From positions 17,586 to 81,585 of the forward strand of contig CAZECE010000060.1 in NCBI GenBank assembly GCA_964510525.1: 64,000 nucleotides of DNA, read 5' to 3'. The notes under the pieces are model-generated. The model had not been told where the DNA came from, did no database searches, and saw nothing but the letters and a program-made list of their open reading frames with translations. Origin of the DNA: an uncultured Pseudomonadales bacterium. Its GTDB lineage: Bacteria > Pseudomonadota > Gammaproteobacteria > Pseudomonadales > JANQJO01. Both the position numbers and the translations under genes were made by a program. Below, piece by piece: positions 1,697 through 55,756 of the stretch. Within the stretch, counting starts at the first letter, position 1. Every line of letters begins with the position of its first letter.

Positions 1697-2909
1697 TCTC
1701 ATCAGCAATTCGTTGATGTGGCACGATAAAACCTTCCTTGCTATAAGACCCAAGGATGTAGTTGGATCTGTCCAGCGCCTCGTGTCGTGTGGATGAGAAG
1801 GCGTGTTGATAATGTTTAACAAGCCCTTGATAGGGTTGCAGCTGCTCCAGACTGTCTCGAATGGCTGATGTATCTAAAGAGCCAGTCGCTTGAATGGCCT
1901 GCGCCAGTAAGTGTGTTAGATCATAAGCGTGAGCGATGCCGACGGGGGATGCTAAGTTTTCTGCAGTTGCTGCTGGATCGAAGAGCTTCCGATACAAAGA
2001 CAACACGTTTTGATGGGTTTGGTTGCGTGTCTTTGGGTTGAGAAATGAGTAGGTTTGCAGAAACAATAGGTCCACTTTTTGAATGTTCTTGAGTTCAGCG
2101 ATTGAAGTAAAATGCCCCCCCGTGATGCCCCAATGAGAGTAAATGGGTAAGCGCTCGTTCTTTGGTTGGTTCGCCATATTTTGAACCAGCACAGCACCTT
2201 CGGGGGCGTTAGCAACTAATACAAGTGCCTGGGTTGGTGTTTTTTGGATGCGGTTTAACGTGTTGGAGAAGTCATCTATACCCCAATGGAACCATTCGAT
2301 GGCATGAATATTTATATCCAGCTTTTGAGCTGCTTGCGAGACGGACTTCTCGTTAGAGCGACCCCATCCCGTGCGTTCTAGAAGCAACGCGATATCTGTG
2401 ATGCCGGTCTTTTTAATTTCAGATAATAAAAACTCCCCCGCATACTCATCTCGGACTGACAAACGGAATACATAGTTAGGGGCGTAACCGTTATCGATAA
2501 TCGGAGTACCGGCGGCCCAGGGAACTAAAAAGGGAATCTCAAGTTTGTGTATCAGGGGGAGTTGGCTTAAAACAACCGGCGTGTGAACACCGGATAACAC
2601 GGCTACGGCGTTGTTGTTTTCTACAAGCTCTCGAAGGTTATCGACGCCTCTGGCAGGATTGCCTTTGTGATCGGTGGTGATGAGTTTTAATGGGCGGTTT
2701 AGGACACCCCCCGCTTGGTTAATTTCATGAATGGCTATCTCTGTGCCTCGTTGAATCGCTTGCCCGCCTTCGGCAGCAACCGCACTCATGTCGGCATCTA
2801 GGCCAATAATGATGGGCTCAGAAGTGTTGGCCGCAATGGTGCTTTTTGCCATGACGCTGAAGGCAAAAAAAACGACAGATATCGCCAAGAGTTGTTTTAA
2901 CAGTATCAT
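1683..2909 (-). CDS. Periplasmic type-I solute-binding protein (Leu/Ile/Val-binding LivK/Peripla_BP_6-like), orphan (no permease or ATPase genes adjacent)
   Basis: 408-aa ORF with signal peptide MILLKQLLAISVVFFAFSVMA. The N-terminus IIIGLDADMSAVAAEGGQAIQRGTEIAIHEINQAGGVLNRPLKLITTDHKGNP matches the LivK-family pattern. Confidence 0.8.
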   Translation of the reverse strand: MILLKQLLAISVVFFAFSVMAKSTIAANTSEPIIIGLDADMSAVAAEGGQAIQRGTEIAIHEINQAGGVLNRPLKLITTDHKGNPARGVDNLRELVENNNAVAVLSGVHTPVVLSQLPLIHKLEIPFLVPWAAGTPIIDNGYAPNYVFRLSVRDEYAGEFLLSEIKKTGITDIALLLERTGWGRSNEKSVSQAAQKLDINIHAIEWFHWGIDDFSNTLNRIQKTPTQALVLVANAPEGAVLVQNMANQPKNERLPIYSHWGITGGHFTSIAELKNIQKVDLLFLQTYSFLNPKTRNQTHQNVLSLYRKLFDPAATAENLASPVGIAHAYDLTHLLAQAIQATGSLDTSAIRDSLEQLQPYQGLVKHYQHAFSSTRHEALDRSNYILGSYSKEGFIVPHQRIADENDVE

Positions 2910-3039
2910 TTTTATGTCTAATAAAGAGTGTACTTTTTATCATAGTTTTTATTAGACAATAGGCCCTAAAATCTCAGCGTGCAGAGAGGATTTTATTGCG
3001 TTTTAAATGAGAAACCCGTGCGGTTATGGCGAAAAGCAA

Positions 3040-5001
3040 TCAGTTTGTGTTTAAGCGCTCCGCCACCAGCTTTTCAACGGCGCTGGGGTCTGCCAGAGTG
3101 GAGGTGTCTCCCAACTCATCCACTTCATTCGCTGCAATTTTGCGTAATATCCGCCGCATGATTTTGCCGGAGCGAGTTTTGGGGAGCGCAGGCGCCAATT
3201 GAATCAATTCGGGTTTGGCAATGGGGCCAATCTCTTTGGCCACATGCTCCCTTAAGGTGGCAATTAAGCTGTCGTTGGGACCATCGTTGGAGCCCATGTC
3301 GTGCATCAGTGAAACATAGGCATAAATGCCCTGGCCTTTGATGTCATGCGGATAGCCAACTACGGCAGCCTCGGCAACGGCTTCATGCAATACCAGGGCA
3401 CTTTCAATTTCGGCGGTGCCCAGTCGATGCCCAGAGACATTTAACACATCATCGACGCGCCCAGTAATCCAGTAGTCGCCGTCTTCGTCTCGACGCGCAC
3501 CATCACCGGTAAAATATTTACCAGGATAAGCGGAAAAGTAAGTATCCAGGCAGCGTTGATGATTACCAAAAACACTGCGGATTTGGCTGGGCCAAGACTG
3601 CTCGATCACCAAGTTGCCTTCTCCCGGGCCCTCAATGAGGTTACCTTCGTTATCGACCAAACCCGGTTTAACACCAAAGAAGGGCTTCATGGCGCAACCC
3701 GGCTTCATGTCCGTTACGCCTGGAATGGGGGAGAGCATGATGGCGCCGGTTTCTGTTTGCCACCAGGTATCAACGATGGGGCATTGACCATTGCCGACCA
3801 CCTGGTAATACCATTCCCAAGCTTCTGGGTTGATCGGCTCGCCGACTGTGCCGAGTAATCGTAATGAGTTGCGTTGCGTTTTTTTAACAGGCGCATCACC
3901 CAGAGCCATCAAAGCGCGAATGGCCGTTGGGGCGGTGTAAAAAATACTAACGGCGTGTTTGTCAATGACATTCCAAAATCGGGAGGCTGAAGGGTAGGTG
4001 GGAACCCCTTCAAACATCAGCGTGGTGGCGCCGTTGGCCAATGGACCATAGACAATATAAGAGTGCCCCGTTATCCACCCCACATCCGCTGTGCACCAAT
4101 AAACATCGCCCTCTTGATAATCCAGGATGTATTTATGGGTCAGTGTGGCTTGTAATAAGTAACCGGCGGTAGTGTGTAACACGCCTTTTGGCGTTCCCGT
4201 TGATCCGGATGTGTACAGAATAAACAACGGGTCTTCCGCGTCCATCACTTCGGGTTCATGTATGTTAGAGGCTGAGGCCATCGCTTCGTGATACCAGCAG
4301 TCGCGCTTAGTATGCCAGGCTACGTCATTATCAGTACGCTGAACCACAAAGACGGTATGCACATTAGGGCAGCCTGTAAGAGCCTGGTCGGTATTGATTT
4401 TTAATGGGATGGTTTTGCCGCCCCGAATACCTTCATTGGCGGTAATCACGGCATGACAATCAGAGTCCAATATGCGCTTTTGTAAGGCTTCCGGCGAGAA
4501 GCCGCCGAATACCACCGAATGAATAGCGCCAATGCGTGCACACGCCAGCATGGCCACGGCGGCTTCGGGAATCATCGGCATATAAATGCAAACGCGGTCG
4601 CCTTTTTGAATGTTGCGAGCGAGAAGAGCGTTTGCAAACTGACACACTTCTTGGTGTAGCTCTCGGTAAGTGATGGTTTTGTTATGAGAGGGATCATCAC
4701 CTTCCCAAATAATCGCAGCTTGATCGCCCCGCGTCTCAAGGTGTCGATCCAGACAGTTGTCTGCAACATTCAGTTTGCCTTCGGTAAACCAGATGCTGCC
4801 AGCGGTAGAGAATTCTCCTTCTTGTGTGGTACGCCAAATTTCTAACCAATCAAGGGTTTCATCTGCTCGTGCTTGCCAAAAACGCTCGGGGTGTTCGAGC
4901 GACTCTTGGTACCACTTCTGATAGGTGGCGGCATCTAAATTGGCTTTCTTTTTAAAGGCATCGGATGGGGAATAACGGTTTCCTTTTTGAGCAAGAGACA
5001 T
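3040..5001 (-). CDS. acs: Acetyl-CoA synthetase (AMP-forming)
   Basis: 653 aa. Carries the AMP-binding signature [12 protein letters not shown], plus WWQTETG and a C-terminal [10 protein letters not shown]. Confidence 0.96.
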
Positions 5002-16462: not shown

Positions 16463-19318
16463 ATGCAGTCGGCTCCCAAACCTGTCGTCAGAGACAGTAT
16501 TGATCAAAAAGCGTTGTTGGCGGTTAAAAAGCGCTTTATGCAGATCAATCATGCGCGACTTAGAAGAACCATTAGCACCTTGAATCCGCATCAAGAAGTG
16601 TTCTTTGAAAGTTTGCCGATGCTGCTGCATGTCAACCACCCCTTGCTGCCTGGGTACGTGTCAGACAGTACGCCGAGTGGCATCAGTTGTTACGAGCCCA
16701 GCCGGCAACAAGTCCGTGCGGTTAAAAGCATTGCGCGAACTTTTCAGTATGAAGAGCTCGATGCTAAAGCGCCGCGTTTGATTGAAAACATTTCTATGAT
16801 GGGCTCTTGTGGCACTATTGCGCACTCCCGTTCCAGTGACATGGATTTCTGGGTGTGTCATGACCCTAATTTACTGTCAGGGCAGTTATCGGAGCTTGAA
16901 AAGAAACTCGATCTGATTCAACAGTGGGCGGAAGGGTTAGGCCTAGAAGTTTACTTTTTTCTAATGGATGCCAGCCGCTTCCGGCAGGGGTTGCGTCGTG
17001 GCGTTTCAGGGGAGGACTGCGGAACCGCGCAGCATTATTTGTTGTTAGATGAATTCTATCGAACTTCCATCTTAATTGAAGGACGTTACCCCGTATGGTG
17101 GCTGGTGCCTTCGGAGCTGGAGGCCAGTTACGATGAATTTGTTGAACAGTTAAGGACTGGAAAGCACATTGCGCCAGATGAATGTATTGACTTTGGTGGC
17201 ATTGCGCGAATACCGGCGGGTGAGTTTATTGGCGCTGGTATGTGGCAGCTCTACAAGGGAATCGATTCACCTTATAAATCCGTTATAAAAATTATGCTAA
17301 CGGAACTCTACGCCAGTGAGCACCCGAACGTTCAGCCGCTGAGTGTGAGTTTCAAACATGCGATTTATTCTGGACGTTTGGAGTTAAACCAATTAGACCC
17401 TTATGTGATGTTATATCGCCGATTAGCGGAGTATTTCAAAAAACAAAAAGCCGATGGGCGTTTAGAGTTGTTGAGGCGTTGCTTGTATTTAAAAATCAAT
17501 GAACCGATGAGTCGCCCTGAAGGTCGAGGTACCTTGAAGTGGCGTCGAGAAGCCATGGGGGAGTTGGTTGAAGAGTGGGGTTGGGACAGCGTTCAATATA
17601 AAACCCTCGATGGACGAACCAACTGGAAAGTGCATCAAGTCAAAAATGAACGCAAACGTTTGGTGGATGAGCTCAATTTCAGTTATCGGTTTTTATCTCG
17701 TTTTGCTCGTGAGAACCGGTCCGCTTTATTGATTGATGAGCAAGATATGAATTTGCTGGGCCGCAAACTTTATGCGGCGTTCGAGCGTAAAAGTGGCAAA
17801 GTTGAGTTAATTAACCCTAATATCGTGCCGAGCTTAACGGAGGAGTATCTCACGTTAATTCGTGAAGAAGCTGACCCTCATTCTCAAAAACCCAGTACGT
17901 GGGTGATTTATGGTGGGCGCGTTAAGTTAGAAGAGCAAGACATTCATGAGCCCATCAAGCGTGGGCGCAGTGTCGTGGAATTAATGGTTTGGTGTTATTT
18001 CAATGGCATTGTTGATGTTACGACAAACTTCGTCTTATTCCCCGGTTTTTCAAAACTGACAGAACCTGAAATTAAGCGCATTGTCTCAGCCTTGCAAGGC
18101 GTTTACCCCAATATGGTGGGGCCTGCTGAGCAGCAGCAATACCATTCGGCGGCGTCACCCAAGCAGTTAATTTTGTTTGTGAATATTGGTAAAGATCCAA
18201 TGAGTGATTTGAACCGAAAGGGCGTTCAACGCTTAACGGATCGAACAGACCCTTTTAATTATTCAGGGTTGAGGAAAAACTTGGTTTTATCGATTGATCA
18301 AGTGTTAGTGAACAGTTGGCATGAAATTACGACCAGTTTTTATTCTTACGATAATGTGATGATTGATTGCTTATTGGATTTTTTGCGTCAGGTGCAGCGC
18401 CTGGACTTAACGGGTATGTGTGATGTTCAGGTATTTTGCTTTTCATCCGATCGAGCAACGTCGATTGCAGAGCGTGTGGAAGCGGTTTTTAATCAGGTTG
18501 TGCAACGATTTTGTTTAACGCCAGATGCGTATCCGTGTCGCTATGTATTAGAGATGGATCAAGGATTTTATGTTTTAGATAATGAAAAGAAAAAACCGAA
18601 TGCCGTTTATTGTCGTTCCAAATTAGAACTTTTAAAGTACTTAGGGCGAGTGCAGTCTAACCCTGATTTTGTGGAATTGATTTTTGATTCACAAGCGCTG
18701 TCATCGGATTTGTTGCCGGAGTTGGCGCGCTTTAATCGGCCGAATTCCGTTCAAGTTTTTTATCAAAAACTCAATATGGAAGATGTTGGTATCCACATTT
18801 TTGATGAGTTTGGTTCCTGTTTTTATTGGCAGGAACATCACATTGAAGAACAGGCGTATTTTTCTCGTTTGGTTCAGTTTATACAACGAGCGCATTCGCG
18901 AGAAAATTTAAGTATTGGGGAATCTGAAAATGTTTTTGTACCCAAAATACAATGCTTTGAGCTGTTTAAATCGCGAAAACTCACCATTGAACGGCGTGAG
19001 TTTAAATCCAATGCGTTGGAAATTAATTATCATCCGGTGCAAGTGTTGGTTAAACAAAAAGACCCTCAATCTCATCACTATACCTTTTACTGCGATCACT
19101 TGGAATTTTCAGAGTTTGAACACGGTGATGATATTTTTAAAGTGGTCGCAGGGTACATACATCAGCAGCGATTAAACGGCGAAAAGTACCCGATCCATAT
19201 TACGGATTTGGATTTGTCAGGCCTTCAAGACGACTCCAGGCATCATTCGACCAGTTTTTTCTTGCAGCAAAAGTTTGCGTTGGAAGGGTTGTTAAATCGG
19301 GCGTTGCAGTTGCTTTGA
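16463..19318 (+). CDS. cyaA: Class I adenylate cyclase
   Basis: 951 aa. The catalytic-region motif MGSCGTIAHSRSSDMDFWVCH resembles E. coli CyaA. It lies near hemC, as in enterics and Pseudomonas. Confidence 0.9.
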   Translation: MQSAPKPVVRDSIDQKALLAVKKRFMQINHARLRRTISTLNPHQEVFFESLPMLLHVNHPLLPGYVSDSTPSGISCYEPSRQQVRAVKSIARTFQYEELDAKAPRLIENISMMGSCGTIAHSRSSDMDFWVCHDPNLLSGQLSELEKKLDLIQQWAEGLGLEVYFFLMDASRFRQGLRRGVSGEDCGTAQHYLLLDEFYRTSILIEGRYPVWWLVPSELEASYDEFVEQLRTGKHIAPDECIDFGGIARIPAGEFIGAGMWQLYKGIDSPYKSVIKIMLTELYASEHPNVQPLSVSFKHAIYSGRLELNQLDPYVMLYRRLAEYFKKQKADGRLELLRRCLYLKINEPMSRPEGRGTLKWRREAMGELVEEWGWDSVQYKTLDGRTNWKVHQVKNERKRLVDELNFSYRFLSRFARENRSALLIDEQDMNLLGRKLYAAFERKSGKVELINPNIVPSLTEEYLTLIREEADPHSQKPSTWVIYGGRVKLEEQDIHEPIKRGRSVVELMVWCYFNGIVDVTTNFVLFPGFSKLTEPEIKRIVSALQGVYPNMVGPAEQQQYHSAASPKQLILFVNIGKDPMSDLNRKGVQRLTDRTDPFNYSGLRKNLVLSIDQVLVNSWHEITTSFYSYDNVMIDCLLDFLRQVQRLDLTGMCDVQVFCFSSDRATSIAERVEAVFNQVVQRFCLTPDAYPCRYVLEMDQGFYVLDNEKKKPNAVYCRSKLELLKYLGRVQSNPDFVELIFDSQALSSDLLPELARFNRPNSVQVFYQKLNMEDVGIHIFDEFGSCFYWQEHHIEEQAYFSRLVQFIQRAHSRENLSIGESENVFVPKIQCFELFKSRKLTIERREFKSNALEINYHPVQVLVKQKDPQSHHYTFYCDHLEFSEFEHGDDIFKVVAGYIHQQRLNGEKYPIHITDLDLSGLQDDSRHHSTSFFLQQKFALEGLLNRALQLL

Positions 19319-53084: not shown

Positions 53085-54242
53085 ATGAAAATCATGCAAG
53101 ACATCGATCTGAAACAAAAGCGCGTCATGATCCGCTCGGATTTAAACGTGCCATTAAATGCAGAAGGTCAAATCACCGACGATGCGCGCATTAGAGCAGC
53201 GTTACCTGCGTATCAGCAAGCACTCAAAGCCGGTGCGGCTGTGTTGGTGCTGTCGCATTTAGGGCGACCGGTGGAAGGCGAATACGATGCGCAATTCTCA
53301 TTGGCGCCGGTTGCACAACACTTAGAAGGCTTGTTGGGTCAGTCGGTGCGCTTGGAAAAAGAGTGGCTGGCGGGCGTTGATGTTCAGCCGGGTGAGATTG
53401 TTCTCTGTGAAAATGTACGCTTTAATGTTGGTGAGAAAAAGAATAACGCGGACTTGGCCAAAAAAATGGCGACCCTGTGTGATGTGTTTGTGATGGATGC
53501 CTTTGGCACAGCGCATCGTAAGCAGGCTTCTACCTATGGGGTTGCAGAGTATGCAGCAGAGGCGTGCATGGGGCCTTTGTTGGGTGCGGAAGTGCAAGCG
53601 CTGCAAAAAGTCTTGGGCGATCCTGAGCGTCCATTATTGGCCATTGTCGGTGGTGCCAAGGTTTCTTCTAAGTTGGCTGTGTTAGAATCTTTGGCTGATA
53701 AAGTGGATCAACTCATCGTGGGAGGCGGTATTGCCAATACCTTTATCGCCGCATCTGGGTATGGTGTGGGAGCTTCTTTGTGCGAAGCCGATTTGATTGA
53801 GACTGCAAAACGCATTCAAGCGAAAACCGATATTCCATTACCCGAGGATGTGGTTGTGGCGAAAACCTTTGCCGCCGATGCTCCGGCTACGGTGAAAGCC
53901 TTGTCAGAGGTGGCGGAAGACGACATGATCTTGGATATTGGCCCGAAAGCGGCCAAGGCATTTGCCGAGCGCGTTAAAGCCGCTAAAACCGTTGTGTGGA
54001 ATGGCCCTGTTGGAGTGTTTGAGTTTGACGCCTTTTCTGGAGGCACGCGCGCATTGGCACAAGCGGTTGCAGAGTCTCCCGCCTTTTCTGTCGCTGGTGG
54101 AGGTGATACCATCGCTGCGATTAATGCGTTTGAAGTAGATAGCCAAGTGGATTACATCTCTACCGGTGGTGGCGCGTTTTTGGAATTCTTGGAAGGTAAA
54201 CAGTTGCCCGCCTTGGAAGTGTTGGCGCGAAGAGATCAGTAA
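53085..54242 (+). CDS. pgk: Phosphoglycerate kinase
   Basis: [31 protein letters not shown]. Confidence 0.96.
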
Positions 54243-54655
54243 GAACGTAACCCCAAACTTGATTTGGGGTCCAGGGTAGGAGGCACAGAGCAGAGTTTTT
54301 CTGTGATCTTAGCTGGGAGCACTGACCCCTGGATTCCAGATCAAGTCTGGAATGACGGTAGGTAGTGCAGAATGACGGCAGTGTAGTAAGTAGTAAAGGA
54401 TTAAGTAAGAACGTCACCCCAAACTTGATTTGGGGTCCAGGATAGGAGGCACAGAGTAGAGTTTTTCTGTGATCTTAGTTGGGAGCACTGACCCCTGGAT
54501 TCCAGATCAAGTCTGGAATGACGGTAGGTAGTTCAGTAAGAACGTCACCCCAAACTTGATTTGGGGTCCAGGATAGGAGGCACAGAGTATATTTTTTCTG
54601 TGATCTTAGTTGGGAGCACTGAGCCTTTGGACTCCAGACCAAGTCTGGAATGACG
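54238..54655 (+). repeat. Tandem array of three ~128-bp structured intergenic repeat units (pgk-fba spacer)
   Basis: Copy 1 is 54238-54365, copy 2 is 54404-54531, and copy 3 is 54535-54655 (more diverged). Copies 1 and 2 differ at about 4 positions. A 38-nt spacer after copy 1 repeats the unit's 3' end (GAATGACGGCAGTGTAG). Each unit carries hairpins ACCCCAAA-CTTGA-TTTGGGGT, CACAGAG...CTGTG and ATTCCAGA-TCAAG-TCTGGAAT. Copy 1 starts on the pgk stop codon. Confidence 0.9.
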
Positions 54656-54691
54656 TGAAGAATTCATTAAAAAGCAGTTGAGGAGAAAGAT

Positions 54692-55756
54692 ATGCCATTG
54701 ATCAGTATGCGTCAGTTGTTGGACCATGCCGCTGAGCACGAGTACGGTGTGCCGGCTTTTAACGTGAATAACCTAGAACAAATGCGGGCCATTATGAACG
54801 CCGCAGATAAAACCGATTCCCCCGTCATCGTTCAAGCCTCGGCGGGCGCACGAAAATACGCAGGTGCGCCTTTCTTGCGCCATTTGATCCTGGCCGCCAT
54901 CGAAGAATGGCCACACATCCCAGTGGTGATGCATCAAGATCACGGGGTTTCGCCTGCTGTGTGTCAGCGGTCTATTCAGTTGGGTTTTTCGTCGGTGATG
55001 ATGGACGGTTCACTCGGGGAAGATGGTAAAACCCCAATGGACTACGATTACAACGTCAAAGTGACCCGCCAAACCGTCGAAATGGCGCATGCTTGTGGTG
55101 TCTCTGTAGAAGGCGAATTGGGTTGCTTGGGATCTTTGGAAACAGGTCAGGCGGGTGAAGAAGATGGTATCGGCGCGGAAGGTACGTTAAGCCACGACCA
55201 AATGCTGACAGATCCGGAAGAAGCCGCTGATTTTGTTAAAGCCACTCAAGTGGATGCTTTGGCGATTGCGATCGGCACCAGTCACGGCGCCTATAAATTT
55301 ACCCGGCCACCGACGGGCGACATCTTAGCGATTGATCGCATTCGTGCGATTCACGAGCGTATTCCAGATACACACCTGGTGATGCACGGCTCTTCTTCGG
55401 TGCCTCAGGAGTGGTTGGCGATCATCAATGAATTTGGTGGTGAAATTCCAGAAACCTATGGCGTGCCGGTGGAGGAAATCCAAGAAGGCATCCGACACGG
55501 AGTGCGCAAGGTGAATATCGATACCGATTTGCGTTTGGCGTCAACGGGCAGTATCCGACAATTTTTAGCGGAGAATCGAGCTGAGTTTGATCCGCGTAAA
55601 TATTTGAAAAAGTCCGTGGCAGCGATGCAAGACATCTGTGTTGATCGTTACGAAGCTTTTGGTACGGCAGGTCAAGCTTCGAAAATAAAAACCCTCAGTT
55701 TGGATGCCATGGTCGACCGTTACTTGGCGGGTGAGCTGGATCCACGTGTCCACTAG
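54692..55756 (+). CDS. fba: Class II fructose-bisphosphate aldolase (354-aa Calvin/gluconeogenic subtype)
   Basis: [40 protein letters not shown]. Confidence 0.95.

Follow-up and report, generated by a model that had tools for sequence, protein, structure and literature searches.

What occupies the gap between two neighbouring glycolytic genes when that gap is built almost entirely of repeats: a structured regulatory RNA or a DNA repeat element? The question is raised by 64,000 nucleotides of DNA (hereafter, the window) from an uncultured Pseudomonadales bacterium (GenBank assembly GCA_964510525.1, contig CAZECE010000060.1, forward-strand positions 17,586 to 81,585). Here, the genes for phosphoglycerate kinase (pgk) and class II fructose-bisphosphate aldolase (fba) are separated by a 449-nt spacer, which is filled by three head-to-tail units of approximately 128 nt. 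An initial annotation, made from the letters of the sequence, took these units to be a transcribed, structured RNA element and compared them with REP- and ERIC-class repeats. The analysis described here indicates that the spacer is probably a NIME/REPIN-like tandem array, in which an Ssn-related (NTS-type) DNA hairpin occurs as three inverted doublets. The comparison with REP/ERIC-like elements therefore stands, while the locus would be explained by a known type of DNA repeat and thus not by a new regulatory RNA.

The tandem arrangement is recovered by Tandem Repeats Finder (period 166 nt, score 563, 96% matches), by alignment, and by a seed-and-extend repeat search, which places the in-register copies at spacings of 166 and 131 nt with identities of 100, 95, and 72% over 138 nt (Table 1). 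Copies 1 and 2 differ at exactly 4 of their first 128 positions, matching the earlier estimate, and copy 3 has diverged mainly in its 3′ arm, which reads CCTTTGGACTCC as described (alignment A1). The first copy overlaps the pgk stop codon (AG-TAA-GAACGT), and the third ends 36 nt before the fba ATG, where about 37 had been counted. The last codons of pgk and its stop (GAT CAG TAA) lie within the boundary of the repeated unit: the 5′ flank AGTAAGAA, which includes the stop codon, is common to all three units, and the 3′ flank GTAGGTAGT is common to units 1 and 2. The long linker between units 1 and 2, which appears as an alignment gap relative to the junction of units 2 and 3, carries a truncated hairpin 3′ end.

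In each unit, a spacer of approximately 52 nt separates a 30-nt hairpin motif, CGTCACCCCAAACTTGATTTGGGGTCCAGG, from an inverted copy that reads CGTCATTCCAGACTTGATCTGGAATCCAGG on the minus strand, so that the ends of the unit form an imperfect terminal inverted repeat of about 31 nt. Across the array, six hairpins alternate with 52-nt spacers and with linkers of 18–54 nt, the repeat segments as a whole ranging from 18 to 56 nt. The hairpins share the frame CGTCAYYCC-palindrome-GGRRT-C-CAGG. Its 5′ part, CGTCA, is present in five of the six (hairpin 1a has CGTAA), as is the C plus CAGG after the palindrome (GGGGT-C-CAGG or GGAAT-C-CAGG), with hairpin 3b keeping the C and then reading CCAAA. A degenerate pattern for the 30-nt motif has six matches in the window, all within the array, against 0.00 expected from 100 dinucleotide shuffles. 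Neither this pattern nor the repeat search detects another copy in the window.

The structural elements first described for the unit are all present. These are the two outer hairpins (ACCCCAAA-CTTGA-TTTGGGGT and ATTCCAGA-TCAAG-TCTGGAAT), the central CACAGAG-N8-TTCTGTG hairpin, and the long-range pairing of GGGGTCCAGG with CCTGGATTCC. As DNA, the array hairpins have an 8-bp stem and a 5-nt loop, with energies of −6.4 to −7.9 kcal/mol. The minimum-free-energy fold of a unit is one long stem on either strand (−52, −57, and −50 kcal/mol for the plus strand; −46, −48, and −47 kcal/mol for the minus strand), with z-scores of −4.4 to −6.8 for both strands, and the plus-strand RNA fold of the whole spacer has a z-score of −7.1. 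Comparing both hairpins of one unit shows three stem pairs that are altered in both arms (CC/GG to TT/AA, and A/T to G/C). As a result, each local 8-bp hairpin is perfect, and the long-range stem contains three G-U pairs and three C-A/A-C mismatches, whichever strand is considered. The conserved feature is the local hairpins, not a strand-specific long stem; the array is non-random DNA, with selection acting on its hairpins. Kissing loops and a two-state stem, proposed earlier as a special architecture, are expected of any inverted doublet, because complementary loops and a competing long-range stem follow from the unit being an inverted duplicate.

The same hairpin is found in many other genomes. 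A 21-nt core, CCARACTTGATYTGGRRTCCA, was scanned against one genome per species for 185,579 species, and at least 117 stretches contain it, compared with approximately four expected by chance on our own estimate. The counts given here for foreign loci (117 stretches, 120–124 instances) are among the matches listed. Carriers include Saccharibacteria, other lineages of the candidate phyla radiation (CPR), Rickettsiales, Rhodospirillales, Maricaulaceae/Woodsholea, Ensifer, Gammaproteobacteria, Campylobacterota, Planctomycetota, and Dependentiae, among others. The tetranucleotide GTCA, which is absent from the search query, lies on the 5′ side of the stem in approximately 100 of the 124 unique instances, with CCAG on the 3′ side. 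In addition, covariation of the three variable pairs of the stem is nearly perfect across the 124 instances: pair 1 is CG in 76, TA in 40, TG in 4, and mismatched in 4; pair 2 is TA in 108, CG in 10, TG in 3, and mismatched in 3; and pair 3 is AT in 89, GC in 33, GT in 2, and never mismatched.

The genomic setting of the foreign copies also resembles that of the array. Just 16% lie fully inside open reading frames (ORFs) of at least 120 amino acids, against a background of 79%, and the hairpin is thus mostly intergenic. An inverted partner is located 3–168 nt downstream (mostly 3–80) in 51 of 120 instances (42%), and a same-sense neighbour in 9 of 120. Partners often differ in the core of their palindrome (CCAGCCTTCGCTGG, CCCGCCTGCGCGGG, or CTGAATCAAGTTCAGG), and the resulting doublets, GTCAT-hairpin-ATCCAG...CTGGAT-hairpin-ATGAC, are 55–130 nt long. 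Hairpins of the window are identical to foreign loci at 27–30 of 30 nt, in both orientations and at unrelated sites. The internal 52 nt, by comparison, are matched only at the same locus in population variants. Such near-identity across phyla suggests either recent horizontal spread or a very strong constraint imposed by a protein.

Several individual loci deserve description. The framed hairpin is 100% identical over 27–30 nt at L022 4052–4081, L035 23–51, L065 4807–4835, and L030 4616–4643, and an identical hairpin also occurs in L026, L058, L064, L079, and L081; the hosts are Patescibacteria/CPR2, Rhodospirillales, and Woodsholea. Several genomes contain multiple copies of the hairpin, such as those of Woodsholea and a Rickettsiales metagenome-assembled genome (MAG). 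In Woodsholea maritima DSM 17123 it is the CCCC/GGGG variant, the same as the 5′ hairpin of the window, and is followed by a conserved extension of about 40 nt (CCATGCCGGACGnGTTGAGC...) at eight sites in five loci on two scaffolds; these sites make up a dispersed family of longer repeats that build on this hairpin. Another MAG (L041, JAJXZH010000024) has hairpin arrays at 191–297 and 4147–4416, with three sense copies at a 43-nt period and three further copies at a period of about 124 nt, mixed with other hairpin types. In L121, positions 2901–3107, the hairpin is in a 186-nt tandem duplicate. NIME-like arrays thus occur well outside Neisseria.

Scanning viral contigs (IMG/VR) for the hairpin core returned five loci, and only L125 has both the GTCA frame and an inverted partner. 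The remaining four (L122 2763–2783, L126 10127–10147, L123 1358–1378, and L124 987–1007) have no GTCA frame, resemble chance or coding matches, and were rejected as Ssn-type hairpins. L122 and L126 share their context, as do L123 and L124, and the 21-mer lies inside conserved, apparently coding sequence. There were no matches to the internal 29-mer of the unit in JGI metagenome contigs and no blastn match to the unit in PLSDB plasmids, and searching the literature for the sequence of the hairpin gave unrelated primer matches only.

The frame of the hairpin connects it to a described repeat–nuclease system. The NTS repeat of Neisseria, CGTCATTCCCGCGMAVGCGGGAATCYRG, contains dRS3 (ATTCCC-N8-GGGAAT). 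SsnA, a GIY-YIG nuclease of 94 aa with a single domain, binds this repeat exclusively on its sense strand, as a hairpin of single-stranded DNA (Chenal et al. 2025, Nat Commun 16:2388, PMC11893778). The cut falls a few nucleotides upstream of the repeat; SsnA does not act on double-stranded DNA or RNA, and depends most critically for binding on the C just after the palindrome (PMC11893778). Across bacteria, Wolbachia included, homologues of ssn are flanked by Ssn-related motifs (SRMs) in an NTS-ssnA-NTS layout (PMC11893778). The outer frame of the hairpins in the window, CGTCAYYCC-palindrome-GGRRT-C-YRG, is the NTS/dRS3 frame (CGTCATTCC...GGAATCYRG), including the C after the palindrome. Like NTS and other SRMs, the hairpin has an 8-bp core and is intergenic, multi-copy, and spread over phyla; it differs from NTS in the A/T-rich core of its palindrome (CCAAA-CTTGA-TTTGG).

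In some of the foreign loci, the hairpin lies beside a nuclease gene. When every ORF of the 117 listed loci was searched iteratively, single-domain GIY-YIG ORFs of 94–97 aa were found in seven loci (PF01541, E 1e-15 to 1e-17). Each has this exact hairpin 10–60 nt before its start codon and a further hairpin directly downstream, which is the published NTS-ssnA-NTS layout; GIY-YIG ORFs adjoining the hairpin lie, for example, at L062 2700–3044 and L013 4389–4670. NCBIfam contains no model specific to GIY-YIG proteins of the Ssn type, whose domain is cd10448. A further, weak hint comes from Rfam: the Wolbachia family WsnRNA46 (RF02625) matches positions 54395–54541 of the plus strand with 25.6 bits (E 0.0097; gathering score 65.3). 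The match extends end to end through a shared frame, GTCA...GGGATCCAG...CTGGATTCC...TGAC, with unrelated inner sequence. Falling below the gathering score, the unit is not a member of this family, but WsnRNA46 may derive from the same Ssn-type repeat superfamily, Wolbachia being a genus with reported SRMs (PMC11893778).

The array itself most likely grew by segmental duplication in place, through unequal recombination or slippage, rather than by three insertions. This is suggested by the shared flanks, which include the pgk stop, by the linker remnant, and by a contig of the same population (L002). There, AGATCAGTAAGAACGT lies ahead of a unit and repeats the last codons of pgk with their stop, so that 16 nt spanning the stop have been duplicated again downstream of the remnant of an earlier unit; this contig has at least three full units plus the upstream remnant. 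In another contig (L003), the unit-1 linker is joined directly to a unit-3-like copy. L001, L002, and L003 differ in the sequences and numbers of their units, and these contigs break inside the array, which points to ongoing copy-number change in the population. The nearest Pgk homologue is 67% identical; Marinomonas keeps the order tkt-gap-pgk-fba with an unrelated, repeat-free spacer of 297 nt, and in another gammaproteobacterial MAG, pgk is followed by pyk. A 493-aa ‘Pgk’ (P0002; L127 190–1671, ENA ERZ27233562) was considered as a read-through into the array and rejected as an unrelated protein. It has an internal duplication of about 110 aa of its central domain, probably an assembly artefact.

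Together, these observations allow a history of the locus to be proposed. A single doublet would have arrived at the 3′ end of pgk, possibly mobilised in trans by an Ssn-type enzyme, and unequal recombination or replication slippage would then have multiplied it on the spot. A cognate Ssn, where present, would bind the hairpin and nick it a few nucleotides 5′ of CGTCA whenever the sense strand becomes single-stranded, that is, in replication, repair, or DNA uptake. Such nicking would make the locus recombinogenic and its copy number variable. The shared orientation of pgk and fba makes transcription of the array probable, and its RNA would form three helices of about 20–30 bp with a possible effect on processing or stability; this would be a by-product and would not account for the conservation of the sequence.

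A number of points weigh against assigning the array to an Ssn-type repeat family. The published SRM string, HGTCWYN(0-2)YYVSBRHN(0-5)WNVSBRGN(0-2)RNCYNB, has no match in the window, because it demands G/C at stem positions that are A/T here; this string is the authors’ search heuristic, derived from 29 genomes, and not a functional definition (PMC11893778). A nuclease gene lies within about 4 kb in only 7 of the 117 listed loci. Exact-protein look-ups added approximately 13 kb of sequence from the same population, and neither the window nor these contigs contain a GIY-YIG/ssn gene or, over the total of about 77 kb, any other hairpin of the class. The copy-number variants rest on short-read metagenome contigs, which are prone to mis-assembly of repeats, and transposition by Ssn has been raised as a hypothesis only and never demonstrated (PMC11893778). 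The host is a marine-biofilm gammaproteobacterium and not Neisseria or a symbiont.

A broader proposal, which is unlikely as a whole, joins two ideas. The CTTGA hairpin (CGTCAYYCCARA-CTTGA-TYTGGRRTCCAG) would be a distinct Ssn specificity class, one that SRM strings miss and whose identity from CPR to Proteobacteria would reflect recent transfer between phyla. At the same time, the array would have been co-opted as RNA punctuation of the tkt-gap-pgk-fba genes, acting as an RNase III site or a barrier to 3′-exonucleases that uncouples pgk and fba expression.

Also unlikely is the view of the initial annotation, in which selection maintains a plus-strand RNA, either a cis-acting structure or tandem small RNAs, that tunes the stability, processing, or attenuation of pgk relative to fba. 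Transcription of the spacer is plausible, as pgk and fba are co-oriented and a scan of the spacer found neither a sigma-70-type promoter nor a convincing intrinsic terminator between them, with nothing beyond shuffle expectation and marginal terminator-like matches only at the central hairpins. The plus-strand folds are strong, both per unit (−50 to −57 kcal/mol) and for the spacer as a whole. Moreover, the similar Wolbachia palindrome is catalogued as an expressed small RNA, WsnRNA46, albeit on a weak match, and the long terminal-inverted-repeat hairpins of Neisseria Correia elements bind RNase III and are cleaved or protected (PMC2649163). However, the conserved parts are generic hairpins that occur in unrelated phyla and sites in both orientations, while the interior of the unit shows neither a homologue nor covariation, and the minus strand folds nearly as well. 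The initial annotation had itself named many genomic copies in both orientations, with terminal inverted repeats and target-site duplications, as what would mark a plain MITE (miniature inverted-repeat transposable element), and the recurrence of the same 27–30 nt in unrelated phyla agrees with this in spirit. No Rfam family matches anywhere in the window at its gathering score; a permissive scan gives only sub-threshold, hairpin-shaped matches to WsnRNA46 and microRNA precursors. The apparent variability of copy number in the population also argues against an RNA element.

The case for an RNA had been built on substitutions said to preserve the plus-strand fold. A few one-sided transitions do keep plus-strand G-U pairs: pairing on that strand alone is retained by three to four stem transitions (columns 48, 92, and 93, the last of them twice). 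Plus-strand pairing is lost through two others (columns 76 and 105), a further one in column 98 benefits both strands, and the strand bias, 3–4 versus 2, is not significant. The change in column 98, a T-to-C in copy 3 that had been read as a repair, leaves the local minus-strand hairpin paired through a G-T wobble and is equally compatible with a sense-strand DNA hairpin. Among six distinct unit copies (alignment A4), there are no double-sided changes under either the long-stem or the local-hairpin model; these copies vary too little to support either, and shuffle controls are uninformative for the same reason. The C-to-T changes may have another explanation. The inner frame of the hairpin is CCWGG (Dcm-type), with CCTGG at 54329–54333 and 54495–54499, CCAGG at 54271–54275, 54437–54441, and 54568–54572, as against TTTGG at 54627–54631 in unit 3. 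Inner C-to-T changes in CCTGG are recurrent, occurring in unit 3 of the window and in the L002 unit (~139–145), and would fit deamination of 5-methylcytosine as well as selection for G-U pairs. The argument from plus-strand RNA covariation is thus unsupported, and any RNA-level effect would be a by-product.

The array could also be viewed as a classical miniature inverted-repeat transposable element (MITE), a non-autonomous derivative of an insertion sequence (IS) with a DDE transposase, mobilised via its terminal inverted repeats and leaving target-site duplications. The imperfect terminal inverted repeats, a unit length of about 112–128 bp, and the multi-copy state of the hairpin in genomes such as Woodsholea and the Rickettsiales MAG would agree with this. 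Nevertheless, it is very unlikely. There is no clear target-site duplication (flanks AGTAAGA/ACGTCA...TGACGG/TAGGTAG): units 1 and 2 have no direct repeat around them, and unit 3 has only the 4-nt AAGA. Each ‘terminal repeat’ forms a self-complementary hairpin of its own and carries an oriented NTS frame, the gene adjoining the hairpin in other genomes encodes a GIY-YIG nuclease and not a DDE transposase, and the shared flanks with the pgk stop indicate segmental duplication instead of three separate insertions.

Marginally less credible still is a REP/REPIN mobilised by RAYT, a Y1 transposase of the IS200/IS605 type. An inverted hairpin doublet is indeed the architecture of REPINs (PMC3116915), and there are GTAG motifs in the 3′ flank (GGTAGGTAGT). 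Yet the hairpins carry the oriented frame CGTCA...TCCAG in place of the GTAG-hairpin of REPs, and the gene co-located with them in other genomes is again GIY-YIG, although no search aimed at RAYT genes (PF01797) was made in these loci. Least probable of all is a fortuitous palindrome that belongs to no family and was copied in tandem by neutral local duplication. This would suit an array that is the sole occurrence in about 77 kb and has a unique interior, but is already contradicted by terminal 27–30 nt identical to repeats in dozens of unrelated genomes, by the approximately four matches that chance predicts for the 21-nt pattern, and by covarying stems and an untargeted yet conserved GTCA frame.

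Table 1. Genes, repeat units, and hairpins of the pgk–fba region (window coordinates).
Feature	Position	Strand or sense	Description and basis
pgk, phosphoglycerate kinase, 385 aa	53085–54242	+	ORF list; PF00162 on identical protein
Unit 1	54238–54365	+	5′ flank AGTAAGAA, hairpin doublet, 3′ flank GTAGGTAG
Hairpin 1a, Ssn-related (NTS-type)	54246–54275	Plus-strand sense	CGTAACCCCAAACTTGATTTGGGGTCCAGG; pattern match with one mismatch, in GTCA frame; as DNA, 8-bp stem, 5-nt loop, −7.9 kcal/mol
Unit 1 central 7-bp hairpin	54284–54305	+	CACAGAG-N8-TTCTGTG, in unit-specific spacer
Hairpin 1b	54328–54357	Minus-strand sense	CGTCATTCCAGACTTGATCTGGAATCCAGG; pattern match and DNA fold
Long linker, units 1/2	54366–54403	+	Truncated hairpin 3′ end together with linker, GAATGACGGCAGTGTAGTAAG, from 54370
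Unit 2	54404–54531	+	Tandem Repeats Finder, alignment, repeat search
Hairpin 2a	54412–54441	Plus-strand sense	CGTCACCCCAAACTTGATTTGGGGTCCAGG; 0 mismatches
Unit 2 central hairpin	54450–54471	+	Fold, terminator scan
Hairpin 2b	54494–54523	Minus-strand sense	0 mismatches
Unit 3, diverged copy	54535–54662	+	Alignment, repeat search
Hairpin 3a	54543–54572	Plus-strand sense	0 mismatches
Unit 3 central hairpin	54581–54602	+	Fold, terminator scan
Hairpin 3b, degenerate	54626–54655	Minus-strand sense	CGTCATTCCAGACTTGGTCTGGAGTCCAAA; 3 mismatches; G-T wobble in stem; 3′ frame CCAGG changed to CCAAA
fba ribosome-binding site	54680–54685	+	GAGGAG, outside repeats
fba, class II fructose-bisphosphate aldolase, 354 aa	54692–55756	+	ORF list; PF01116 on identical protein

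The repeats also generate spurious minus-strand ORFs of 55–85 aa (54160–54417, 54475–54642, and 54545–54739), which gene callers could annotate as hypothetical proteins. Approximately 3.5 kb downstream of fba lies a gene for a 1229-aa RHS/YD-shell protein (PF25023; 59254–62943, plus strand; in L002, 5029–8718), and another large ORF comes after it. This region may be a polymorphic toxin locus.

Identification of the spacer as an array of Ssn-related hairpins means that a candidate structured RNA is explained by a known class of DNA repeat, which spares the pursuit of a false riboregulator lead. It also adds a data point on a repeat–nuclease family outside Neisseria. Of interest here is a variant of the hairpin that escapes the published string, is shared nearly base for base across distant phyla, and occurs outside Neisseria in arrays of the NIME kind. 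Should a cognate Ssn act on it, the array would be a recombinogenic, copy-number-variable sequence between two essential glycolytic genes, and a simple natural system in which to ask whether repeats of this type influence the expression of the operon or genome dynamics only.

Among known repeat systems, the array combines features of several. NIMEs, which have been described as Neisseria-specific, consist of dRS3 (ATTCCC-N8-GGGAAT) flanking RS elements of 50–150 bp (Bentley et al. 2007, PMC1797815). As in NIMEs, hairpins alternate with repeat segments of 20–150 bp, arranged head to tail in an intergenic region, and array length apparently varies, as judged from the short-read assemblies L001, L002, and L003. 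In contrast, the hairpins here read ATTCCA-N9-TGGAAT or ACCCCA-N9-TGGGGT and so depart from the dRS3 consensus, and the three units sit in the spacer of a glycolytic operon, not near surface-antigen genes. REPINs and BIMEs (Bertels & Rainey 2011, PMC3116915) share with the unit the arrangement of two inverted hairpins and a spacer in a super-hairpin of about 100 nt; they too are non-autonomous, with a candidate mobilising enzyme that works on single-stranded DNA. Here, however, the sequence frame is different and the associated family is a GIY-YIG nuclease, not a Y1 transposase. Correia elements (CREE, NEMIS) and ERIC are elements of 100–150 bp with terminal inverted repeats in transcribed intergenic regions, and have hairpins bound by RNase III (PMC2649163). 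They have no sequence similarity to the array, which also lacks their TA target duplication, but by analogy they offer the best model for any RNA-level side effect that the array might have.

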